A DNA stretch of 41,923 nt, from IMG/VR virus record IMGVR_UViG_2630968543_000002, one strand, 5' to 3'. The notes below the pieces were generated by a model. It was not told the DNA's origin. It ran no database searches and saw nothing but the letters and a program-made list of their open reading frames with translations. This stretch comes from a virus. Lineage: Duplodnaviria > Heunggongvirae > Uroviricota > Caudoviricetes. A program made the translations under genes and the position numbers. Numbering within the stretch: the stretch's first letter is position 1; every line of letters starts with the position of its first letter. Below, piece by piece: positions 2,796 to 40,788 of this stretch.

Positions 2796-3818
2796 TTACT
2801 CGAATTCTGTACGCATATCGTTAAGCGTCATCATGAATTTTTGGTGATATTCATCACCGAGCTTTTCAGCCATGGTGTTAATTTCATTTTCAGCGCGCTT
2901 GAACATCGTTTTTGCATCTTCAGCAGATGGATCCAGGCTATTAAGTATCGCGATGATATATTCTCGAGCTTCTTCTCGTTCTGAATCTGAAATTGGCGAT
3001 AGGTGTTGACGCTCATCGTCAACTACGGAATATTCACCAGTGATAACAGCTGCGTTATCTTGGCTAAGTCCAGCTTCAGCGCGCTCATCCATAACAACAG
3101 CCTTCTGCATCTCAATAGAAACAGGAAGATATTTGAACAGTCGGCGAATTACTGTTTTTTTAGCCATCTCATCGAAGTGATCAACCCATGGGCCACTGCT
3201 ACCGGCTTTGCTCAGTGCACGAACTTTCTCAACGTCTGCCCGGCTCATAACTTCAAATTGGACTCCACCATCTTTCAGTCGTGCAACGGCGTAAACGTGC
3301 GTTAATTCTCCGCGGTCACCTGTTTCGCAAGGTAAATGCTCGAGCGTTTCTTCCAGGCCGTATGAGTAGCTGAATTTGTCGTTTGTATGTACGGTACGAG
3401 CCGAGATACTCAGGATCTGCCCAGAGCGGCGGGCAAGGTCAATCATTCCGCGATAGCCGATAATCAGCTGTGCTTCTGTAGATACGGTTTCCCATCTTCC
3501 ATTTACTTTCTGGCGTTTGTCGAACGGTATCAGGTAAGCGTGTCCAAGAGCTCCACCTGGTTCAAGACCCAATTGGGCACATTGCATAATTGCCCCCAGG
3601 AAGCTGGCTTGGTCGCATGATGCAAGTTTTGGAACCTTTCGGATCTCTGTGGTTGCTATGCGCGCCAGACGGTCTGCTGTCATGTGCTTTGGAAGTGCCA
3701 AAGCCATCTGGGCTTTTATTTTTGGGTCTGCCAGAAGTCCGGCCAGAGTTGTTGGTTTCTCATTATGATGTGCAACTTGGTTACCGGTAGCCGCTGCCTT
3801 AAGTGCATTGATAGACAT
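2796..3818 (-). CDS. recT: RecT-family single-strand annealing recombinase
   Basis: 340-aa ORF with strong RecT signature (RIATTEIRKVP...LGLEPG...GHAYLIPF...QLIIGYRGMIDLARRSGQI...THVYAVARLKDGG...FEVM...GPW...EMAKKT.IRRLFKYLPVSIE). Confidence 0.9.
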   Translation of the reverse strand: MSINALKAAATGNQVAHHNEKPTTLAGLLADPKIKAQMALALPKHMTADRLARIATTEIRKVPKLASCDQASFLGAIMQCAQLGLEPGGALGHAYLIPFDKRQKVNGRWETVSTEAQLIIGYRGMIDLARRSGQILSISARTVHTNDKFSYSYGLEETLEHLPCETGDRGELTHVYAVARLKDGGVQFEVMSRADVEKVRALSKAGSSGPWVDHFDEMAKKTVIRRLFKYLPVSIEMQKAVVMDERAEAGLSQDNAAVITGEYSVVDDERQHLSPISDSEREEAREYIIAILNSLDPSAEDAKTMFKRAENEINTMAEKLGDEYHQKFMMTLNDMRTEFE

Positions 3819-3827
3819 TTTTTCTCC

Positions 3828-4727
3828 TTACTTCATTCTGAAGACGCGTTGTGTCGTTGTTGTTTTGAATTTTTCGAATAACTCAGGGTGTACTGACTGG
3901 AATAGCTTCTGGTCGAATCTGTTGCTGATCTGAGATTTCCATGTGCAGAGCGGCTTTCCGTCCAGGGTCAGGACTGAGTGCTCTTGCATGTACATCTTCA
4001 GCTTCTCTTCTGATATAGCTATTTCTTCTTCCAGTGATTTTCTGCGTGACTTCATGTCTCGTAGATCGTTGAATAGTGCGAGTGCCTTTCCGTCAGCCTC
4101 GATACTTGTCCCGGCATCTTTCTCAAACATCAGCGATACATCGCTTACGCTGGTAGCTTCCGGCGGGTTAAGATTTTTCACTCGGTCCCAGAAAGCGATT
4201 TCTTTTTCTAAGATCGCCTGGATAGTTTCTTCATCACGCTCAACCCGATAGATTCGGAAGTCGTCGCCACCGATAAGCACACCGAAAACGCATACCTGTT
4301 TGTTTGTAACCATCAACCCGTGCATGGCCTGGGCCGTGTAATGCACAGGAATTGCATCTGTCTGGATTTCTCCCCATTCTTTGGCTTTGAACGGACTAAC
4401 TGTTTTGATCTCAATGTTCTCGCCTGACGCTGCTTCTGCATCGATCTCAGCTGCAATAAAATCGTAATCACGGTGGATATAGCGGTTTCCGCGATGAACG
4501 ATTTCCATCCCTGTTTCCTCAGAAAGCAGGTCTATTACGTATGGCTCCATACGCTGGCCACGCGTGAAAACTTTCTGCTTGCTTGGGTCTACTGGTTTGA
4601 CACGTGGCTGGACTTTATCCAGATAAACCTCAAGCGGGGTGCGCCATGGGCTAATTCCAAGAATCCCTGCAACATCGCTTCCTCCGATGTATTTTGTTCT
4701 ATCCATGATTCCAGCGTTCCGCATCAT
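3828..4727 (-). CDS. YqaJ-like phage exonuclease (lambda Exo-type PD-(D/E)XK), partner of RecT
   Basis: 299-aa ORF directly upstream of recT; N-terminal GGSDVAGILG motif typical of YqaJ recombination exonucleases; ATGA overlap with the preceding gene. Confidence 0.8.
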   Translation of the reverse strand: MMRNAGIMDRTKYIGGSDVAGILGISPWRTPLEVYLDKVQPRVKPVDPSKQKVFTRGQRMEPYVIDLLSEETGMEIVHRGNRYIHRDYDFIAAEIDAEAASGENIEIKTVSPFKAKEWGEIQTDAIPVHYTAQAMHGLMVTNKQVCVFGVLIGGDDFRIYRVERDEETIQAILEKEIAFWDRVKNLNPPEATSVSDVSLMFEKDAGTSIEADGKALALFNDLRDMKSRRKSLEEEIAISEEKLKMYMQEHSVLTLDGKPLCTWKSQISNRFDQKLFQSVHPELFEKFKTTTTQRVFRMK

Positions 4728-5025: not shown

Positions 5026-5178
5026 TCAGCCCTCCCATATCTCGTTATCGTTGGCTACATCGCGAGCTTCTTTGCTGACGAAAGCCCACTTGATGCCTTC
5101 CTGTAAGGTGCGGAACTTCCAGCTCATGAATCCGCATGCAGTAACGCAGTACCAACCGTTGATGATTTTCCACTGCAT
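5026..5178 (-). CDS. Small Cys/Trp-rich ORF (50 aa), first gene of the leftward early operon; not in the ORF track (under 60 aa)
   Basis: Hand translation MQWKIINGWYCVTACGFMSWKFRTLQEGIKWAFVSKEARDVANDNEIWEG; GAGG about 9 nt upstream; lies just downstream of the OL operators. Confidence 0.3.
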   Translation of the reverse strand: MQWKIINGWYCVTACGFMSWKFRTLQEGIKWAFVSKEARDVANDNEIWEG

Positions 5179-5184
5179 AACTTG

Positions 5185-5274
5185 TTACCTCGGCTTGTTA
5201 CCGTTGAGGTAATGGTTATGCGTATTTGGTTTGATGTCAATAGATATGAGTTAAAAAAATTACCCATAAGGTAA
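5185..5274. promoter_or_regulatory. Left operator/promoter region (OL-like): two perfect TTACC-N5-GGTAA palindromes (5198..5212, 5260..5274) plus a TTACC half-site at 5185..5189
   Basis: Direct reading; a minus-strand TTGACA -35 hexamer lies between the two sites (plus 5235..5240, as tgtcaa). Confidence 0.65.
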
Positions 5275-5287
5275 TCTTGATGGCAAT

Positions 5288-5309
5288 AAAAAAGCCGCCA
5301 TGAGGCGGC
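5288..5309 (-). terminator. Rho-independent terminator downstream of the repressor gene
   Basis: GCCGCC-ATGA-GGCGGC hairpin (5294..5309) followed on the minus strand by a 6-U tract (plus A-run 5288..5293). Confidence 0.6.
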
Positions 5310-5331
5310 TTACTTGCTGAAAACTATAGTT

Positions 5332-5916
5332 TTATTGTTTATTTTTTTCGTTCTGGTTGATGACAAATTCAATGTAACTTTCGATCTTTGCTTTCTCGGT
5401 TTCGGGTAACAATGCGTAGCGCGAGCGGTCATAGTTGATGGTCGCAGGGTCGTGCGGGTGAATCAGTAATTCATAGCCGTGACGCCCGAATGCGGATGCA
5501 ACATTCTCCAGGGTGGAAATGGAAACGCTGACCTCATTGTTTAACAGGCGGCTGATTGTTACCTGGGCGACGCCGGATGCGCGGTGAAGTTTTCCCTGTG
5601 TTGAAAGGTCGCGGCTTTCGCTCATCCAGCGTTCCAGGTTGTGAGCCGCCAGCTGACCAATGTCGCTTGGGCCGACAGGCTGAAAACCTTCCTGAGAAAG
5701 CGAGCGATCGATATCAAGCCAGTTACGGGGTTTATTGGCGGCAGCTTCAATTTTTCGCGCAACCTGGTCGCCGATAACCTTCTTGCCAAGAGCCCAGCGG
5801 TTTACCAGATTTGCCTGAGTTCCAAGTTTTTCTGCCATCCGCGTCTGAACACCATTGAATTCACGGTCGATCAAGTCGTTGAGATTTTGCCTGCGGACGT
5901 CCTGGATACTTTTCAT
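5332..5916 (-). CDS. Prophage repressor with two tandem HTH domains (CI analogue); no S24 peptidase domain evident
   Basis: 194-aa ORF with two HTH-like segments (QTRMAEKLGTQANLVNRWALGKK and GVAQVTISRLLNNEVSVSISTLENVA); divergent from the Cro-like gene across an operator-rich spacer. Confidence 0.75.
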   Translation of the reverse strand: MKSIQDVRRQNLNDLIDREFNGVQTRMAEKLGTQANLVNRWALGKKVIGDQVARKIEAAANKPRNWLDIDRSLSQEGFQPVGPSDIGQLAAHNLERWMSESRDLSTQGKLHRASGVAQVTISRLLNNEVSVSISTLENVASAFGRHGYELLIHPHDPATINYDRSRYALLPETEKAKIESYIEFVINQNEKNKQ

Positions 5917-5971
5917 TTTCTGGAAAATCGCCTCATATATGAATCAGTAGATGATTCAATTTAAAGCAATA

Positions 5972-6034
5972 TTACCCAACAGGTAAATGCACCTCATAGG
6001 TAACTATCCTTGATTTTTGTTACCTTATGGGTGA
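5972..6034. promoter_or_regulatory. Right operator region (OR-like) between repressor and cro: one perfect site (5972..5986) and two degenerate sites (5989..6003 GCACC-N5-GGTAA; 6020..6034 TTACC-N5-GGTGA)
   Basis: Direct reading; the third site lies between a TTGATT -35 (6011..6016) and a GAATAT -10 (6034..6039) of the putative rightward promoter. Confidence 0.65.
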
Positions 6035-6070
6035 ATATTTATTATCTGAAATAAATATCAGGCAATAGCT

Positions 6071-6301
6071 ATGAGCGATAACGGACATTTCGATTTCAAA
6101 AAGCACTGGCTTGCACTTACTCCGGATGAGCGTGAAGCCTTCGCACAGGAAGCCGGAACGACGAGTCACTATATCCAGACTCACTTAACAGGTAAGCGCA
6201 AAATGCCAGGTAAGGTATTGATGAATGGGCTTTTTAAAGCCTGTAAAACAAGACAATGGCTGCGCTCAAAAGCAGAACTGGCATACTTCTTCTACTCATG
6301 A
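6071..6301 (+). CDS. Cro-like small DNA-binding protein
   Basis: 76-aa ORF divergent from the repressor, followed by a terminator; putative HTH segment EAFAQEAGTTSHYIQTHLTGKRKMP. Confidence 0.65.
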   Translation: MSDNGHFDFKKHWLALTPDEREAFAQEAGTTSHYIQTHLTGKRKMPGKVLMNGLFKACKTRQWLRSKAELAYFFYS

Positions 6302-6323
6302 TATCCATCCACAACCCTCTGTA

Positions 6324-6348
6324 GACCGCCATCCGGCGGTCTTTTCAT
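6324..6348 (+). terminator. Rho-independent terminator after cro (tR1-like)
   Basis: GACCGCC-ATCC-GGCGGTC hairpin followed by TTTTCAT. Confidence 0.6.
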
Positions 6349-6356
6349 ATCTATTC

Positions 6357-6371
6357 GTACCTCAAAGGTAA
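6357..6371. promoter_or_regulatory. Operator-like site GTACC-TCAAA-GGTAA (one mismatch) just downstream of the cro terminator
   Basis: Direct reading. Confidence 0.4.
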
Positions 6372-6451
6372 TAAAAAACCAAATCTGGTTGATCTTTTTT
6401 TTGTGTCAGCACAAAATGACCGTAATCCCAATACTAATAACAGGGCTTACC

Positions 6452-6652
6452 ATGGAAATCATTACACGTATTGATGCCGCAAAGCGCGGACTTAAACGCT
6501 ACTACACCGGAAAACCATGTAAGCACGGACATGACAGTGAACGCTGGGTTTACAACGGACACTGTGTTGAGTGCACTATGGAATCAAACCGTCGCATCAG
6601 GGCAGAGATTAAGCAGATCATGATTAATTCCTCCCCACAACATTCAAGCTGA
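6452..6652 (+). CDS. Hypothetical Cys/His-rich protein (CKHGHD...GHCVEC, possible zinc ribbon); sits where lambda carries cII; start uncertain (ORF opens at 6389)
   Basis: ORF 6389..6652; internal ATG at 6452 gives a 66-aa product. Confidence 0.45.
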   Translation: MEIITRIDAAKRGLKRYYTGKPCKHGHDSERWVYNGHCVECTMESNRRIRAEIKQIMINSSPQHSS

Positions 6653-6667
6653 TAGCGGAGATTAATC

Positions 6668-7483
6668 ATGAGCAGACATGCAACAGATTGGGCCTGGGAG
6701 ACAGATCCAGGTAGCTCGTCATTAAAGCTCATACTGCTCTCGATGGCTGACAGAGCCGATGAATATAACCTCTGCTACCCCAGCATAGAACGCCTCGTTA
6801 AAGACACTTGCCTGAATAAAAAAACCGTGCAGGCCGGGCTTATATCGCTCATGAAGATGGGGCTTATTTCAGATACCGGAGAGAGAAAGGGTGCGACGAA
6901 AAGAGTGCGGGTTTTCTCTCTTAATATAACCAAAAACGGGAACATTAAAGGCAACCGGGAAGGGGGTAATGAACCCGAAAACGGTAATGTTACCGAAAAC
7001 GGGAATATACCCAAAAACGGGATGTTGAATGATCCCAAAAACGGGATGTTGAATGATCCCAAAAACGGGATCCAGAACCAGTCATATAACCAGTCATTTA
7101 ACCAAGAGAGGGAGAGCAGGACAAAAAGCGGGGATTCTGTGCCTCATGACCCCGGCGCAAACAACGCCGTGATGAATAACTTTGTTCCTCCTGGTGGGCC
7201 AGGGCAATTAGGCAAATTTGTCATGCATGAACAATGGCAGCCATCAGATGACTTTCTTCGGAAAAGCTCATTGCAGGGGATCTACCTGGACAGCCTGCCA
7301 ACGGCACAGGAGCTTGCAGAGTTCAGAATTTACTGGATGGCTGAGGGTAAGGCATACCATCAGGCACAGTGGGAGCAGAAGCTGGCAAGGCGGCTGCAGA
7401 TTAGCAGACAGAAGCAATCAACATTACCTGATAACAACGTTCCGCACTGGAACAGCCCTGAAGCGTGGGAGGATTTCTTGTGA
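6668..7483 (+). CDS. Replication initiator (lambda O analogue) with DnaT-like C-terminal domain; the gene contains the putative origin iterons
   Basis: 271-aa ORF; N-terminal winged-helix-like region (LKLILLSMADRADEYNLCYPSIERLVKDT), central NG-rich repeats encoded by the iterons, C-terminal FRIYWMAEGKAYHQAQWEQKLARRLQ; GGAG Shine-Dalgarno. Confidence 0.75.
   Translation: MSRHATDWAWETDPGSSSLKLILLSMADRADEYNLCYPSIERLVKDTCLNKKTVQAGLISLMKMGLISDTGERKGATKRVRVFSLNITKNGNIKGNREGGNEPENGNVTENGNIPKNGMLNDPKNGMLNDPKNGIQNQSYNQSFNQERESRTKSGDSVPHDPGANNAVMNNFVPPGGPGQLGKFVMHEQWQPSDDFLRKSSLQGIYLDSLPTAQELAEFRIYWMAEGKAYHQAQWEQKLARRLQISRQKQSTLPDNNVPHWNSPEAWEDFL
6929..7072. repeat. Origin-like iteron array: six copies of CC(A/G)AAAACGG(G/T)A, the last three as 24-bp tandem repeats, followed by AACCAGTCAT direct repeats
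   Basis: Direct reading (copies at about 6930, 6975, 6993, 7011, 7035, 7059). Confidence 0.7.
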
Positions 7484-8290: not shown

Positions 8291-8302
8291 ACGTCTCGAT
8301 AA

Positions 8303-8317
8303 TTACCTGTGAGGTAA
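8303..8317. promoter_or_regulatory. Perfect operator palindrome TTACC-TGTGA-GGTAA, immediately preceded by GATAAT (-10-like)
   Basis: Direct reading. Confidence 0.55.
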
Positions 8318-8364
8318 TAAAATATTCTAAACTCTATTGATTTCGTGTCTTATGTGGTTTTTAA

Positions 8365-8379
8365 TTACCTCAGGGGTAA
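8365..8379. promoter_or_regulatory. Perfect operator palindrome TTACC-TCAGG-GGTAA, 4 nt upstream of the 8383 start codon; TATGTGGTT motif 5 bp upstream (8351..8359)
   Basis: Direct reading. Confidence 0.55.
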
Positions 8380-12807: not shown

Positions 12808-12834
12808 GCCGCCAACTATGGCGGCTTTATTTTG
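12808..12834 (+). terminator. Rho-independent terminator between the early-right genes and the late operon
   Basis: GCCGCCA-ACTA-TGGCGGC hairpin followed by TTTATTTTG. Confidence 0.55.
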
Positions 12835-12844
12835 CATGGTACTA

Positions 12845-12877
12845 TTACCACAACGGTAACAATTACCAGGGTGGTTA
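12845..12877. promoter_or_regulatory. Late-operon control region: perfect site TTACC-ACAAC-GGTAA (12845..12859) preceded by TACTAT, plus degenerate site TTACC-AGGGT-GGTTA (12863..12877) ending 2 nt before the terS start
   Basis: Direct reading. Confidence 0.55.
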
Positions 12878-15653: not shown

Positions 15654-15730
15654 TGGCGCGGCATGCAGGATTCGAACCTGCGACCAACCGCTTAGAAGGC
15701 GGTTGCTCTGTCCAACTGAGCTAATGCCAC
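15654..15730 (-). tRNA. tRNA-Arg (anticodon UCU), phage-encoded, 77 nt with encoded CCA
   Basis: Manual fold: acceptor GUGGCAU/AUGCCGC, D-arm GCUC-AGUUGGACA-GAGC, anticodon stem ACCGC/GCGGU with loop CUUCUAA, T-arm GCAGG-UUCGAAU-CCUGC; close to, but distinct from, E. coli argU as recalled. Confidence 0.85.
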
Positions 15731-16052: not shown

Positions 16053-16067
16053 TTACCTGAAAGGTAA
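16053..16067. promoter_or_regulatory. Perfect operator palindrome ATTACC-TGAAA-GGTAAT upstream of the portal operon; TATGTGGTT motif 44 bp downstream (16111..16119)
   Basis: Direct reading. Confidence 0.55.
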
Positions 16068-16157
16068 TAATTCGCGCATTAAATGTCAACTGTCTACGAT
16101 AAATAAATCATATGTGGTTAAATTGGTAATAATTTAATTGCGTACGGAGTCATTGAT

Positions 16158-19057: not shown

Positions 19058-20050
19058 ATGACAATGGCTGTTAAAGGCTTAACTGCGCTAACGCTGGCTG
19101 ACTGGGGTAAGCGCGTCGATCCAGATGGGAAAGTCGATAAGATTATCGAGCTTCTCGGTCAAACTAACCCGATCCTTCAGGATATGCCTTTTGTCGAAGG
19201 TAACCTTCCTACCGGACACAAAACCACCATTCGTTCTGGTTTACCTTCAGCTACCTGGCGTTTGCTGAACTATGGCGTACAGCCAAGCAAATCAACCACA
19301 GTGCAGGTAACCGATTCCGTTGGCATGCTGGAAACCTATGCTGAAGTCGATAAGTCACTGGCTGATCTGAACGGTAATACCGCCGAATTCCGCCTGTCTG
19401 AAGACCGCGCATTTATTGAAGCGATGAATCAGCAGATGGCGCAGACGCTGTTTTATGGTGATTCCAGCGTTAACCCTCAGCAGTTTATGGGACTGTCCTC
19501 CCGCTATTCCAGCCTGTCTGCGGGTAATGCTCAGAACATCATTGATGCTGGTGGCACGGGTACAGATAACACCTCAATCTGGTTAGTGGTGTGGGGCGAA
19601 AACACCGTGCATGGCATCTTCCCGAAAGGGAAGAAGGCTGGCATCCAGATGGAAGATAAAGGCCAGGTGACACTGGAAGATGCTAATGGCGGCAAGTACG
19701 AAGGCTATCGCACCCATTACAAATGGGATAACGGACTTGCTCTGCGTGACTGGCGTTATGTTGTTCGCATTGCAAACATTGATGTCAGCAATCTTTCAGA
19801 ACCTTCCTCTGCCGCAAATATTGCGAAGTTGATGGTTAAAGCACTGCATCGCATTCCAAACCGTGGCATGGGCCGCCCGGTGTTCTACATGAACCGCACT
19901 GTAGGCCAGGCTCTTGATCTGCAGTCTCTGGAGAAAACATCTCTGGCGATTAGCGTAAAAGAGACTGAAGGCGAGTGGTGGACGTCATTCCGTGGTGTAC
20001 CAATCCGTGAAACTGATGCGCTTCTGGAAACAGAAGCCCGCGTGGTGTAA
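19058..20050 (+). CDS. Major capsid protein
   Basis: 330-aa ORF following the scaffold gene; GAGAGG Shine-Dalgarno; size and position typical of a T7-like or HK97-fold major capsid protein. Confidence 0.75.
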   Translation: MTMAVKGLTALTLADWGKRVDPDGKVDKIIELLGQTNPILQDMPFVEGNLPTGHKTTIRSGLPSATWRLLNYGVQPSKSTTVQVTDSVGMLETYAEVDKSLADLNGNTAEFRLSEDRAFIEAMNQQMAQTLFYGDSSVNPQQFMGLSSRYSSLSAGNAQNIIDAGGTGTDNTSIWLVVWGENTVHGIFPKGKKAGIQMEDKGQVTLEDANGGKYEGYRTHYKWDNGLALRDWRYVVRIANIDVSNLSEPSSAANIAKLMVKALHRIPNRGMGRPVFYMNRTVGQALDLQSLEKTSLAISVKETEGEWWTSFRGVPIRETDALLETEARVV

Positions 20051-32851: not shown

Positions 32852-33019
32852 CTATTTGGAGCGAAATGCCGCCTTGAAGTCGCTGAAAGATGTTCCTGTC
32901 TGGTAAACCATATCCTTGTCGCGCTCTTTGCTTGCGCGGCCAAGCATAACTTTTCCAATGACATCCCAGCATTGCTTGGCTTGTTCATTGTGCTGAGTAC
33001 GATTTTTCAACGCTGTCAT
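32852..33019 (-). CDS. Small hypothetical protein (55 aa); first gene of the accessory operon; not in the ORF track
   Basis: Hand translation MTALKNRTQHNEQAKQCWDVIGKVMLGRASKERDKDMVYQTGTSFSDFKAAFRSK; GGAGG 6 nt upstream. Confidence 0.5.
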   Translation of the reverse strand: MTALKNRTQHNEQAKQCWDVIGKVMLGRASKERDKDMVYQTGTSFSDFKAAFRSK

Positions 33020-33031
33020 ATCGCGCCTCCT

Positions 33032-33075
33032 TTACCTTTAAGGTAATAGTACGCTATTCACCCCCAGTCTGCAAT
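33032..33075 (-). promoter_or_regulatory. Sigma70-like promoter (-35 TTGCAG, 17-bp spacer, -10 TACTAT) with a perfect operator TTACC-TTAAA-GGTAA (33032..33046) overlapping the -10/+1
   Basis: Direct reading of the minus strand. Confidence 0.6.
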
Positions 33076-33119: not shown

Positions 33120-33812
33120 TCAGAAAAATCCTGCTTTATCGTTGATGTACTCCGCGTGGGTCTCGATATCACGCAGGCATTTGCTCACACCGACGATGTA
33201 GCAGAACATGGTGGTCAGCTCCGCCGCCGCGCCCGATACGTCGTGCCCGTCTTCCTGTAACTGGTTCAGCAGATTCATCAGCAGTGAGTTCTCCGTCAGG
33301 CCGAGAACACCAGACGGCGAGTGAATCAGACTGCGGTAGCCGGGCTTCAGTGGGGCGCTGTAGGTTTTGTTCTCTATCTTCATTGCCTGCATCACTGCTG
33401 ACGCCGTGGCGTTGGCAACCTGGTCGGCAACCATCTTTATGCGTTCTTCCTGCGGGAGCGAGTTTTTAATGTAGCTTCCGGTGCGGCGGATCTGAGGAAG
33501 AACCTCACCTGTAACCCATTCAAGAAATCTGAATGCTCTCGTTCCCTCTGTCATTGCCTCTTTGCAACGCAGAATAAGGATGTAGAGACCTGATTCTGAA
33601 ACGATGGATAGTTCTTGTATTCCACCAGGGGTCTGTATTGAATGCAGCCCCTTTTTGTTCCAGCCTTTTTTATCAAGTTTTCTCGCTTGTGTAACATCAA
33701 TATTCAAAGCATTGCACACATCTTTGGTGACAAACCAAGGTTCTCCGTCAATCATGAACATACGGATCTGGCAGGATGACTCAAAGGAAAAGATGGAAGG
33801 TTTGGTATTCAT
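33120..33812 (-). CDS. Bro-N domain protein / putative antirepressor (Ant-like)
   Basis: N-terminal Bro-N signature (IFSFESSCQIRMFMIDGEPWFVTKDVCNALNI); AAGGTGA 5 nt upstream of ATG 33812 (ORF opens at 33857 with TTG); C-terminal domain paralogous to gene 34959..35216. Confidence 0.75.
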   Translation of the reverse strand: MNTKPSIFSFESSCQIRMFMIDGEPWFVTKDVCNALNIDVTQARKLDKKGWNKKGLHSIQTPGGIQELSIVSESGLYILILRCKEAMTEGTRAFRFLEWVTGEVLPQIRRTGSYIKNSLPQEERIKMVADQVANATASAVMQAMKIENKTYSAPLKPGYRSLIHSPSGVLGLTENSLLMNLLNQLQEDGHDVSGAAAELTTMFCYIVGVSKCLRDIETHAEYINDKAGFF

Positions 33813-33966: not shown

Positions 33967-34080
33967 AAAAAAACCGCTTATGCGGCATATGTGCCTCTGT
34001 AGTAATCCGGGAGACCAATCCCGGCACTGGATTTTGCCAGTGCCCGATTACTATGGCACAAGAGGAGTGCGATGTAAATT
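33967..34080 (-). ncRNA. Candidate structured leader or small RNA upstream of the Bro-N gene (tentative)
   Basis: Minus-strand promoter (-35 TTGATT, 17-bp spacer, -10 TATCAT) abutting the operator at 34080..34094; two stable hairpins (34007..34024 and 34024..34043) and a short GC stem followed by seven U (33967..33985). Confidence 0.25.
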
Positions 34081-34094
34081 TACCGAAAAGGTAA
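34080..34094. promoter_or_regulatory. Perfect operator palindrome TTACC-GAAAA-GGTAA
   Basis: Direct reading. Confidence 0.55.
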
Positions 34095-34172
34095 TGATAA
34101 GCGCGAAAAAACATTAAAATCAACCGTATTTGGTTGATTGCGTTTAACGCTTGATCACCTGAAAGCAAGATA

Positions 34173-34187
34173 TTACCTTTAAGGTAA
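34173..34187. promoter_or_regulatory. Perfect operator palindrome ATTACC-TTTAA-GGTAAT preceded by AGATAT (-10-like), 21 nt upstream of the 34208 start codon
   Basis: Direct reading; core 15-mer identical to the site at 33032. Confidence 0.55.
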
Positions 34188-34207: not shown

Positions 34208-34936
34208 ATGGAAGTTTTCTGGATAGTTGTTGGTGTGGTTGCGGTGATTATTTACGTTATCAACCAGAACAAGACTAAGATCTCTGATCGTACGGTCGTT
34301 AATCAGAACAAAACGATAAAGACCGAAGATGGGGAGATAACGATTAATCGTACACAGGTGATAGAGCACACATCTACTCAGTTTCAAAAAACTGGAGGTA
34401 ACGCTCCTGATATTTCCGTACCTCCTGCTTATGATAGTGCGGTAATCCAGACATATTATAAACAGCAGGAGTTAGCAAAAGAGAGGCAACTGATTCAGCC
34501 AAAGCCGTTTACAGCTGAGCTTCCACCTGGAGTGTCAACGCGTCCGGCATATCATGGAAGATTCCCTGGTGATGACATATCGTCTCAGTCATTTAAAAAA
34601 GCACCTCAGGCAGTATCAGAGCCAGCAAGAATATCTTCTGTATCGCCGCCAAAAGAAGAATCAGCTAACAGAGTTTCAAGCGGTAGCAAGCAGTGCTTGC
34701 GATGCAGAATAAACCTTCCATATGAAAAATTCAGGAAATCGTCAAAAAATCCGGATGGATTGACTAAGTGGTGTGCAAGGTGTCTCGATGGCCCAAAGAA
34801 TACACGTCATATGAAGTGGTGCCCAATTTGTAATGTCCGCAGAAAACGAACCAGCTTTTACCCTAATAATCAAAATGCGGACGGCTTAATGGCATGGTGC
34901 AAAACGTGCTGGGACGAGCACAAAGCGAAACGATAG
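34208..34936 (+). CDS. Membrane-anchored protein with two C-terminal zinc-ribbon-like repeats (unknown function)
   Basis: N-terminal hydrophobic helix (EVFWIVVGVVAVIIYVI); two repeats of C-x2-C-x16-17-DGL-x3-WC-x2-C; GAGG Shine-Dalgarno. Confidence 0.65.
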   Translation: MEVFWIVVGVVAVIIYVINQNKTKISDRTVVNQNKTIKTEDGEITINRTQVIEHTSTQFQKTGGNAPDISVPPAYDSAVIQTYYKQQELAKERQLIQPKPFTAELPPGVSTRPAYHGRFPGDDISSQSFKKAPQAVSEPARISSVSPPKEESANRVSSGSKQCLRCRINLPYEKFRKSSKNPDGLTKWCARCLDGPKNTRHMKWCPICNVRRKRTSFYPNNQNADGLMAWCKTCWDEHKAKR

Positions 34937-34958: not shown

Positions 34959-35216
34959 TTACCTGGTTTGTTTTCGTAATTGTTCGGCACAATAGTCGAG
35001 ATGTGTTTGCAGATCCTGCATAGACATCTGTGAGCTGGTGACGTAGTTAATCAGTGCAGTCAGTTCGGCAAGTGGGCCATCGACATTAAATCCATCCTTA
35101 TTGAGATCCCGGAGTAATTTCATCAAGTGCGATCCCTCCACCAGTGACCTGACGCCTCCCGGCGTGTGAATCCTTTCGGTAAATCCGTCTTCCAGTGGAT
35201 AGTGATACTGCTGCAT
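34959..35216 (-). CDS. Hypothetical protein (85 aa), paralogue of the C-terminal domain of the Bro-N protein
   Basis: ATG at 35216 with GGAG upstream; TERIHTPGGVRSLVEGSHLMKLLRDLNKDGFNVDGPLAELT aligns with RSLIHSPSGVLGLTENSLLMNLLNQLQEDGHDVSGAAAELT. Confidence 0.55.
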   Translation of the reverse strand: MQQYHYPLEDGFTERIHTPGGVRSLVEGSHLMKLLRDLNKDGFNVDGPLAELTALINYVTSSQMSMQDLQTHLDYCAEQLRKQTR

Positions 35217-35292
35217 CTTATCTTCTCCATGCAATAACTGTATATTTATACAGTAGCAAATAATTTGTTTGCTATCCAGCACGTTTTGCAAA

Positions 35293-35307
35293 TTACCTGA
35301 AAGGTAA
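35293..35307. promoter_or_regulatory. Perfect operator palindrome ATTACC-TGAAA-GGTAAT between divergent gene 34959..35216 and the tailspike; TATGTGGTT motif and a GGTAAT half-site follow at 35339..35358
   Basis: Direct reading. Confidence 0.55.
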
Positions 35308-40635: not shown

Positions 40636-40788
40636 CATGGCATTTTTCATGGTACTGATTTCCGGTGACGGTATATAAAACGGTATGGGAAAAATTCATC
40701 TTTGGAAAAATGTTATCACTCAATTGGTTATGGTGTCCGTGAATAATTGAGTGGGAATGATTTGACCCTGCACTATGAATGAACAAAA

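Follow-up and report, generated by a model that had tools for sequence, protein, structure and literature searches.

A probable Rep/Ant-type immunity switch in a phiV10/epsilon15-type prophage, with putative repressor operators distributed across the prophage

The window analysed here, a 41,923-nucleotide stretch of viral DNA (IMG/VR record IMGVR_UViG_2630968543_000002), very probably carries at positions 5185-6371 the switch governing immunity in an integrated prophage of the phiV10/epsilon15 type (Uetakevirus), working like the Rep/Ant system of the Salmonella phage SPC32H. The switch is real, is already known, and had been read correctly in the first-pass annotation, whose named sequence features are all present where it had placed them. 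The region is found at 95-99% identity in 540 of the 5426 complete E. coli genomes, the prophage family being present in about 10% of them, O157 strains included. The switch carries little weight as a discovery, as its type has been solved structurally and genetically in SPC32H; the motif is annotated in epsilon15 and the exact repressor has been tested in phage ZX5. Its value lies in annotation, the databases calling the repressor just a 'helix-turn-helix protein' and the antirepressor a 'hypothetical protein'. The operator map presented here (consensus, spacings, promoter context and SOS box) predicts SOS-dependent induction without cleavage of the repressor and is a ready set of sites for studying operator bridging by a tetrameric repressor.

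The repressor gene (rep) and a Cro-like gene diverge, as had been read, across an intergenic spacer of 154 bp (5917-6070), and the terminators described as flanking them are found as T-tailed hairpins on either side:

5332..5916, minus strand: Rep, prophage repressor, 194 aa (ORF; full-length match to SPC32H Rep)
6071..6301, plus strand: 76-aa Cro-like protein of HTH type (hit to PHROG 35, 'transcriptional repressor', at E=5.6e-13)
5292..5311, minus strand: intrinsic terminator after rep (8-bp stem, 6 GC pairs, T tail)
6323..6342, plus strand: intrinsic terminator after cro (hairpin with T tail)

For population variation, 80 related loci were retrieved, every one with an identical Rep, while divergent relatives for comparison were drawn from phage records. 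The rep terminator varies among the 80 loci only in its loop (5300-5303) and the cro terminator varies in the relatives mostly in its loop. An inverted repeat, CTGAAATAAATATCAG (6046-6061), was considered as an SOS box at the switch and rejected, since it fits CTG-N10-CAG and not CTGT-N8-ACAG; it is missing from epsilon15 and SPC32H.

As in lambda, the repressor and cro genes diverge from a three-part operator, and another operator cluster lies at the leftward promoter. This resemblance speaks for a lambda-type switch in which a CI-like repressor would undergo RecA-stimulated self-cleavage and the 85-aa gene described below would have no part in induction. The repressor itself makes such a switch extremely improbable. 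Rep aligns over residues 1-190 of 194 with SPC32H Rep (PDB 5D50_A, E=4e-42, phmmer), and since these 190 residues are all taken up by the SPC32H Rep domains, no room is left for an S24 domain of about 100 aa. Pfam searches at E<=0.1 return HTH families only, namely HTH_3 (residues 106-147) and, weakly, the Cro-like YdaS (21-61), with no Peptidase_S24 match, and NCBIfam gives weak HTH matches only. The earlier reading that the repressor lacks an S24 autoprotease, for which detection of an S24 fold had been named as the refutation, thus holds, the C-terminal half aligning with the dimerisation and tetramerisation domains of SPC32H Rep. Both of the HTH-like segments it had noticed are also seen, but the second corresponds in SPC32H Rep to a dimerisation domain, according to PMC9986798, and not to a DNA-binding one. 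Following the domain roles given in that source, Rep would comprise an N-terminal DNA-binding HTH, a middle HTH-like dimerisation segment and a C-terminal tetramerisation and Ant-binding tail. The aromatic residues F187/F190, described in PMC9986798 as lying at the SPC32H tetramer interface, correspond to Y181/F184 here, and five Rep proteins share the putative recognition helix NLVNRW without any change.

Rep is 100% identical to the repressors of phiV10 and vB_EcoP_ZX5. In ZX5, overexpression of this identical repressor reduced lysis-gene transcripts by more than 99.9% and blocked lytic growth (PMC9782041), and a paper of 2023 states that the structural basis of repression by this repressor 'has not been extensively characterized' (PMC9986798).

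The presence of a close Ant homologue with an SOS box also argues against the lambda-type explanation. The antirepressor candidates and the SOS box are:

34959..35216, minus strand: 85-aa small antirepressor Ant (E=2e-46 against SPC32H Ant, PDB 5D50_E)
35238..35253, no strand: predicted LexA (SOS) box CTGTATATTTATACAG, preceding the ant ATG by 22 nt
33120..33812, minus strand: Bro-N protein with an Ant-like C-terminal domain, second antirepressor candidate (PHROG 130 'anti-repressor Ant')

Ant shares 73 of its 85 residues (86%) with SPC32H Ant (5D50_E), and its gene occupies the position of SPC32H ant, with the virion operon on one side and the tail spike gene on the other. Of the 20 positions in the LexA consensus 20-mer TACTGTATATATATACAGTA, the SOS box agrees with 18; its orthologue in SPC32H is the box at 19958-19973, which stands at the same 22 nt from the ant ATG. 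SPC32H and SPC32N are two substitutions apart, one of which (19960 G>T) destroys the CAG of the SPC32H SOS box. By analogy, a small antirepressor under SOS control probably inactivates Rep, and the proposal that induction depends on an antirepressor rather than on RecA-mediated cleavage is supported by the SPC32H Rep and Ant homologues, the SOS box and the absence of an S24 domain. The identity of Rep to SPC32H Rep is only about 42% and lower still in the Ant-binding tail, so that the pairing of Ant with Rep is assumed here. The Bro-N protein also matches PHROG 450, common to Ant, and is 41% identical to Ant over 74 residues; its gene appears to be Rep-controlled. In ZX5, overexpression of a Bro-N 'anti-repressor' lowered lysogeny (PMC9782041).

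The operator motif is the palindrome TTACC-N5-GGTAA (17-bp form ATTACC-N5-GGTAAT). There are 11 perfect copies in the window, all of them intergenic, against 0.02 expected from shuffles, and 38 copies with two or fewer mismatches against 12 expected. The same placement recurs in phiV10, epsilon15, Tyrion, SPC32H and BUCT711, the six phages having spacings of 62-63, 17 and 18 bp in common while their Rep proteins are only 42-78% identical. Among 77 distinct relatives the half-sites are near-invariant and the 5-bp spacers variable, diversity being 0.008 in half-sites, 0.065 at fourfold-degenerate sites and 0.162 in spacers. The multipartite-operator switch that had been proposed is therefore backed by motif enrichment, homologous placement, near-invariant half-sites and the repressor-binding annotation of epsilon15. 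The operators are indeed present at the immunity region, to which the first-pass annotation had assigned them, but are not confined to it, at least eight more being spread across the prophage. A motif shared downstream of three operators, ATGTGGTT, was set aside for lack of enrichment, the window having 8 matches where 5.5 are expected.

The spacer between rep and cro had been said to carry one perfect and two degenerate sites (centres 5979, 5996 and 6027), and these have 0, 2 and 1 mismatches, respectively:

5972..5986, no strand: OR1, perfect operator nearest rep, centre 5979
5989..6003, no strand: OR2, degenerate operator with GCACC left half, 2 mismatches, centre 5996
6020..6034, no strand: OR3, 1-mismatch operator within the rightward promoter core, centre 6027

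OR1 is identical in 80 of 80 loci, its spacer included, and would overlap the candidate -35 of the rep promoter (TTTACC, 5987 to 5982), for which TTAAAT (5964 to 5959) is the candidate -10. OR2 lies 17 bp from OR1; its degenerate half is kept as such in all 80 loci and in Tyrion, and the site is perfect in epsilon15 and SPC32H. OR3 stands between a candidate -35 TTGATT (6010-6015), invariant in five phages, and GAATAT (6033-6038), the two hexamers being 17 nt apart. A consensus scan favours for the rightward promoter the overlapping pair TTGTTA (6017-6022) and TATTAT (6040-6045). The position given earlier for the third site is correct; GAATAT is one of two overlapping -10 candidates.

The cluster noted downstream of the repressor (5185..5274) comprises two perfect sites, the TTACC at 5185 being merely a half-site, and a further site follows the cro terminator, as had been described:

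5260..5274, no strand: OL2, perfect promoter-distal operator of the leftward promoter (motif scan)
5235..5240, minus strand: candidate leftward early-promoter -35 TTGACA, midway between OL2 and OL1 (read from sequence)
5198..5212, no strand: OL1, perfect promoter-proximal operator (motif scan)
5185..5191, minus strand: lone TTACCTC half-site, without a right half
6357..6371, no strand: post-terminator operator with GTACC left half, 1 mismatch (motif scan)

OL1 and OL2 are 62 bp apart in all six phages compared (63 in BUCT711), and OL2 combines a half-site diversity of 0 with 15 spacer haplotypes. The TTGAC of the leftward -35 is kept in the six phages, as TTGACA in five and TTGACT in Tyrion. 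The candidate -10 AACCAT (5217 to 5212), which overlaps the last base of OL1, is weak, with 3 of 6 matches here and 4 of 6 in phiV10 and epsilon15. On the opposite strand the half-site at 5185 reads GAGGTAA, which serves the first leftward gene (5026-5178) as its Shine-Dalgarno sequence.

The site at 6357 lies 15 nt after the terminator and is conserved at the same place in phiV10, Tyrion (with another spacer) and BUCT711; no equivalent within one mismatch was found in epsilon15 or SPC32H. Among the 80 loci its right half is invariant and its left half reads G/C/T-(T/C)ACC. It stands upstream of what may be a weak promoter of the replication genes (TTGATC 6389-6394 and CAAAAT 6412-6417, 8 of 12 matches).

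Elsewhere in the prophage the following sites were identified:

8303..8317, no strand: distal operator in a further 62-bp pair, past the terminator of the replication genes
8337..8342, plus strand: candidate -35 TTGATT within the second pair (sequence)
8365..8379, no strand: proximal operator of the second 62-bp pair (motif scan)
12845..12877, no strand: two adjacent operators, 12845-12859 perfect and 12863-12877 with 1 mismatch
16053..16067, no strand: operator upstream of the head-gene operon (motif scan)
33032..33046, no strand: operator directly upstream of the ribosome-binding site of accessory gene 32852-33019 (minus strand)
34080..34094, no strand: operator adjoining a leftward promoter-like site (TTGATT 34123, TATCAT 34094) pointing at the Bro-N/Ant gene
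34173..34187, no strand: operator 20 nt upstream of accessory gene 34208-34936
35293..35307, no strand: operator in the divergent region between ant and the tail-fibre gene, 55 bp from the SOS box

The operator at 8303 has 27 spacer haplotypes with invariant half-sites. For the second pair TTTAAT (8360-8365) is the candidate -10 and reaches into the proximal operator, the right half of which doubles as the ribosome-binding site of the DUF1064 gene (ATG 8383), and the -35 stretch is invariant in 77 loci amid variable surroundings. The -35 hexamers of two promoters thus each lie between operators spaced exactly 62 bp apart. It was also observed that the spacers of the promoter-distal operators are unusually variable; an extreme mutational hot spot at operator spacers was not supported, since the spacer is nearly always the same wherever the flanks of two loci are identical. 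The pair at 12845..12877 lies between a terminator (12808-12825) and the start of the terminase small subunit gene (ATG 12880), and the pair, with its 18-bp spacing, is also found in phiV10, epsilon15 and Tyrion. The operator at 16053 adjoins a leftward promoter-like site (16096 to 16067) directed at tRNA-Arg (15654-15730); the homologues of the 12845 and 16053 sites are both labelled 'repressor' in epsilon15. The 55 bp between the 35293 operator and the SOS box recur in SPC32H, epsilon15, phiV10 and Tyrion, and the Rep site near ant is about 57 bp upstream of the presumed ant start.

It is highly improbable that the sites outside the immunity region, that at 6357 included, are non-functional relics or chance occurrences and that only the OR and OL sites matter. 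The mismatch of the 6357 site and its lack of an equivalent in epsilon15 or SPC32H fit such an explanation, as do the weak promoter candidates beside some scattered sites, several hexamers near operators having only 3-4 of 6 matches. Chance, however, would supply only the 0.02 perfect copies given above, the scattered sites recur at homologous places in the six phages with differing spacers, and their half-sites are invariant in 73-77 loci although the adjoining bases vary.

A second question is which protein, if any, occupies the palindromes. Several of them adjoin terminators or overlap ribosome-binding sites, and they might act as RNA or DNA hairpins; or the Cro-like protein, with its HTH-type fold in a predicted model, or a late regulator could be the main binder, with Rep recognising something else. 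A single-sequence AlphaFold model of the Cro-like protein (pLDDT 81.6) shows five helices and comes closest in fold to lambda-repressor-like HTH domains (TM about 0.6, at a non-significant E>1); the protein is without a Pfam match and a PDB sequence search was also empty. Its role as Cro is suggested by its position, and it may bind the same operators as Rep, so that conservation alone cannot tell which of the two proteins constrains them. Even so, another main binder or a hairpin function is very unlikely. A hairpin of 5 bp around a 5-nt loop is too weak to be useful, and the sites are found on both strands with respect to the genes, for which reasons hairpins were rejected; the sites flank or overlap -35 and -10 candidates at both early promoters; and the epsilon15 annotation and the accounts of SPC32H Rep in PMC9638917 point to palindromic operators. 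The invariant NLVNRW helix of Rep parallels the invariant operator half-site, which supports Rep as the binder, and sharing of the operators by Cro is expected and compatible with the Rep/Ant explanation.

In the mechanism proposed, the N-terminal HTH of Rep would bind the 17-bp palindrome through its putative recognition helix, probably as a tetramer by analogy with SPC32H Rep. The lysogen would have Rep on all three rep-cro sites, among them the one within the rightward promoter core, on the leftward-promoter pair, with one site over the -10/start and one 62 bp upstream, on the site just after the cro terminator ahead of the replication genes, and on further sites that precede the next early operon, the terminase gene and head operon, and several accessory genes. 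Such occupancy would shut off every lytic transcription unit directly, and the two terminators would keep the rep and cro transcripts short and insulated. Rep would escape RecA cutting; upon DNA damage LexA would leave the SOS box over the ant promoter, and the Ant thus made would bind the C-terminal part of Rep and break up the tetramer, so that the operators are vacated. The sites, statistics, conservation, protein homologies and SOS box come from the present analysis, and tetramer binding and the action of Ant from the SPC32H literature. We infer which promoter each site controls, that the 62-bp pairs are bridged, and what part the 6357 site plays. It is a speculative and rather doubtful suggestion that Rep tetramers bridge the 62-bp pairs (about six helical turns, with the -35 at the midpoint) at the leftward and post-replication promoters, so that the promoter is held in a small loop closed by protein, and that the fast-changing, non-contacted distal spacers reflect selection or mutation bias tuning this bridging. 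If the bridging and the terminase and head sites are as read, the immunity repressor would be a global silencer that acts directly, in the manner of P1, and would not stand at the head of a lambda-like cascade.

Among known systems the SPC32H Rep/Ant lytic switch, reportedly described by Kim and Ryu (J Virol, 2013) and Kim et al. (PNAS, 2016) with structures PDB 5D50 and 5D4Z, is the model for the present one. According to PMC9638917 and PMC9986798, SPC32H Rep binds palindromic sites as a tetramer and tetrameric Ant binds the C-terminal domain of Rep; on SOS induction Rep stays uncleaved and is released from DNA by Ant (PMC9638917, PMC9986798 and PMC7380047), the antirepressor being SOS-controlled (Kim and Ryu 2013, as cited in PMC7380047). 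The two systems are alike in the full-length Rep homologue, the close Ant homologue (about 86 aa in SPC32H, 85 aa here), the position of ant, the SOS box distance, the operator half-sites and the matching 62-, 17- and 30/31-bp spacings. They differ in that OR2 and OR3 are degenerate in different halves, and the lineage studied here has an extra site after the cro terminator, extra Rep sites and the Bro-N/Ant-domain gene in the accessory region, and is without a third OL site.

In phiV10, vB_EcoP_ZX5, TL-2011b and related E. coli Uetakevirus prophages the immunity region shows 97-98% DNA identity, with repressors of the phiV10/ZX5/TL-2011b type 98.5-100% identical to Rep. The phiV10 record annotates both terminators and notes two HTH motifs; phiV10 differs in the accessory region (32.3-35.0 kb) and the recombination module. 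Unlike here, operators are not defined in the phiV10, ZX5 and TL-2011b records or the ZX5 paper. The epsilon15 record (NC_004775, Kropinski et al. 2007) holds seven 'protein_bind, repressor, lysogeny' features with ATTACC-N5-GGTAAT, located where the terminase gene starts, at the head operon, in the gp19 (ant)/tail-fibre region, at OL (three sites) and beyond the replication genes; these appear to be predictions, and that record marks no OR sites and none after the cro homologue.

Coliphage 186 (CI/Tum) and Salmonella Gifsy and Fels-2 follow the same logic of an uncleaved repressor and a small LexA-controlled antirepressor (PMC7380047), with unrelated proteins, for which no sequence match was found here. 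Lambda (CI/Cro) and P22 (C2/Cro) share the divergent genes, the three-part OR, the OL cluster and palindromes with variable central bases, whereas the present switch is without an S24 domain, has a tetramerisation tail in place of the CI C-terminal domain, and places operators also at late and accessory operons. Phage P1, the operators of which are asymmetric and the C1 of which is unrelated to Rep, combines in C1 and Coi/Ant one repressor, many scattered operators and antirepressor control, as is proposed here.

The divergent repressor gene (rep) and small rightward, Cro-like gene (cro) were found as described in the first-pass annotation, with a 154-bp spacer between them, and its observation of an immunity switch with multipartite operators is confirmed. 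The repeated element is the palindrome TTACC-N5-GGTAA, mostly with A and T directly outside. Shuffled sequence would give 0.02 perfect copies; the window has 11, every one of them intergenic. The features of the immunity region are:

5198 and 5260: OL1 and OL2, both perfect sites
5292-5311, minus strand: terminator-like hairpin with T tail
5332-5916, minus strand: repressor (Rep), ORF call
5972: OR1, perfect site
5989: OR2, two mismatches, degenerate half GCACC
6020: OR3, one mismatch, degenerate half GGTGA
6071-6301, plus strand: small Cro-like ORF, ORF call
6323-6342, plus strand: terminator-like hairpin with T tail
6357: site past the cro terminator, one mismatch

The claims of one perfect and two degenerate spacer sites, of flanking terminators and of an extra site past the cro terminator thus hold. 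The cluster claimed downstream of the repressor stands for the two OL sites, but its element at 5185 is only a half-site, whose complement serves the first leftward gene as ribosome-binding site.

The motif recurs at the corresponding positions in phiV10, epsilon15, Tyrion, SPC32H (a Salmonella phage with a Rep/Ant switch) and the Klebsiella phage BUCT711, with differing 5-bp spacers. In these six phages, window included, 62 bp separate the OL sites (63 bp in BUCT711), and all six show a distance of 62 bp for a second pair, located behind the replication genes; the distances of 17 bp between OR1 and OR2 and of 18 bp between two sites ahead of the terminase gene also recur. Across 77 distinct IMG/VR loci, all encoding an identical repressor, nucleotide diversity was highest in the spacers (0.162), lower at fourfold-degenerate codon positions (0.065) and lowest in the half-sites (0.008), with both terminators varying mainly in their loops. 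A role of the palindromes as functional protein-binding sites is supported by these sequence comparisons. The degenerate halves of OR2 and OR3 are kept degenerate in 80 of 80 loci and in Tyrion, which makes graded operator strength look built in.

The 5-nt windows richest in haplotypes within 6.6 kb are the promoter-distal operator spacers (27 haplotypes at 8308-8312 and 15 at 5265-5269; 99th percentile of 5-nt windows, 6). The outer flanks of these operators (5274-5280 and 8294-8298) are also among the most variable positions in the 77 prophage copies, the half-sites beside these spacers are invariant, and the OR1 spacer, in contrast to the distal ones, shows zero variation. An extreme hot spot at the distal spacers is not supported, since the spacer is in most cases the same among loci whose flanks are identical; the effect is therefore moderate.

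Pfam matches of the repressor are confined to HTH-type families, in agreement with the claimed lack of an S24 peptidase. Its residues 1-190 align with the SPC32H repressor (PDB 5D50 chain A, E=4e-42), for which a passage in PMC9986798 describes an N-terminal DNA-binding, a middle dimerisation and a C-terminal tetramerisation domain, the last also binding the antirepressor. Both of the HTH-like segments noted earlier were seen, the second corresponding to the dimerisation domain of SPC32H Rep. The same putative recognition helix, NLVNRW, occurs in five Rep proteins whose identity to the window Rep is otherwise 42-78%, in keeping with the unchanged half-site. Overexpression of the ZX5 repressor, identical to the window Rep, abolished free phage and lowered lysis-gene transcripts by >99.9% (PMC9782041). 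The sole match of the Cro-like protein is PHROG 35 'transcriptional repressor'; its single-sequence AlphaFold model has five helices, with lambda-repressor-like HTH domains as the best, non-significant, fold matches, and its putative Cro role rests on position.

We infer the promoters assigned to these sites from sequence. A candidate leftward -35, TTGACA (5240 to 5235), lies midway between both OL operators, with a weak candidate -10 extending into the proximal operator. The 8303/8365 pair is arranged likewise around TTGATT (8337-8342), a stretch that stays invariant in relatives within otherwise variable surroundings. According to a passage in PMC9638917, palindromic sites are bound by SPC32H Rep in tetrameric form, and tetrameric Ant binds this tetramer and breaks it; the two conserved 62-bp pairs, each bracketing a -35, fit a tetramer bridging two palindromes. 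The earlier placement of OR3 between a -35 and a -10 is retained for the invariant TTGATT (6010-6015), while two overlapping candidates exist for the -10. Ahead of the replication genes, the 6357 site is followed by a weak TTGATC/CAAAAT candidate promoter; an equivalent of the site is present in phiV10, Tyrion and BUCT711, and none within one mismatch was found in epsilon15 or SPC32H.

Two other repeats were observed. At 6046-6061, past the rightward promoter and before the cro start codon, lies the inverted repeat CTGAAATAAATATCAG. It is unchanged across the phiV10 group, near-identical in Tyrion and missing in epsilon15 and SPC32H, and it fits a LexA box poorly. The element ATGTGGTT(T/A)3 has exactly three copies (8352, 16112 and 35340), every one of them following a Rep site at a distance of 30-45 nt and preceding a rightward gene, with no window-wide enrichment at one mismatch (8 matches vs 5.5 expected).

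The 85-aa product of 34959-35216 (minus strand) is a homologue of Ant, the antirepressor of SPC32H: the match to PDB 5D50 chain E has E=2e-46, and 73 of 85 residues are shared. Its gene lies in the slot that ant has in SPC32H, flanked by the virion operon and the tail-fibre gene. A candidate, near-consensus SOS box, CTGTATATTTATACAG (35238-35253), lies 22 nt upstream of the Ant start with a Rep site 55 bp beyond it, both distances being the same in SPC32H. Direct comparison of the SPC32H genome with that of SPC32N revealed two differing positions, one of them abolishing the CAG in the orthologous box. Kim and Ryu reportedly found in 2013 that this mutation makes Ant constitutive, and the genome difference fits this. 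Inactivation of the repressor by an SOS-controlled antirepressor is also described, citing Kim and Ryu, in a passage of PMC7380047. The first-pass interpretation, that induction may proceed through an antirepressor in place of RecA cleavage, is supported by the Ant homologue and the SOS box. Ant of the window is 64-86% identical to that of epsilon15, SPC32H and BUCT711, far more conserved than the Rep C-terminal parts (~35-45%) reportedly bound by it, which raises the question of antirepressor cross-action between these phages.

Three further perfect sites lie in the accessory region (33-35 kb), ahead of small genes and a Bro-N protein gene. Perfect operators directly precede the ribosome-binding sites of two accessory genes:

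32852-33019, minus strand: PHROG 8607
34208-34936, plus strand: PHROG 6762, Cys-rich C-terminal repeats

The Bro-N protein (33120-33812, minus strand), with a C-terminal domain 41% identical to Ant, is encoded downstream of a promoter-like site (34080-34123) adjoining a perfect operator. If controlled by Rep, this protein might act as a second antirepressor and provide positive feedback; derepression could then be self-reinforcing. The tRNA-Arg gene (anticodon TCT; 15654-15730, minus strand), located at the same place in SPC32H, may be under immunity control, since a leftward promoter-like site upstream of it (16067-16096, minus strand) adjoins the operator at 16053. The most likely start of the terminase small subunit is ATG 12880, directly behind two operators (12845-12877), where the epsilon15 annotation also has it; in the phiV10 record (41-105) this start is placed upstream of the operators and looks misannotated.

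The window begins with the integrase start codon at position 1 and carries the attachment core ATTGAGTGGGAATGATT at 40746-40762 (identical to the published core, PMC9782041), followed to 41923 by ~1.1 kb of apparent host chromosome; it is therefore an integrated prophage, of phiV10/epsilon15 type (genus Uetakevirus). A Rep-like site with one mismatch upstream of int, conserved in free phage genomes (e.g. phiV10 26870), falls outside the window. The immunity region (5100-6700) is 97-98% identical to phiV10, vB_EcoP_ZX5, TL-2011b and other E. coli phages, colinearity with phiV10 extends over most of the window, and 540 of 5426 complete E. coli genomes carry the region at 95-99% identity. The recombination region (2796-4727), with separate RecT-like and exonuclease genes that do not align to the fused phiV10 gene p37, looks like a module exchange.

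The epsilon15 RefSeq record holds seven 'protein_bind, repressor, lysogeny' features, each ATTACC-N5-GGTAAT, at the scattered places seen in the window, and the phiV10 record annotates both terminators and mentions two HTH motifs. The finding thus correctly re-derives an already known system, in a copy nearly identical to known phages; according to PMC9986798 (2023), the structural basis of repression by this type of repressor 'has not been extensively characterized'. The 62-bp pairs, the extra site after the cro terminator in this lineage, the accessory Bro-N/Ant sites and the haplotype-rich distal spacers go slightly beyond the accessible database records.
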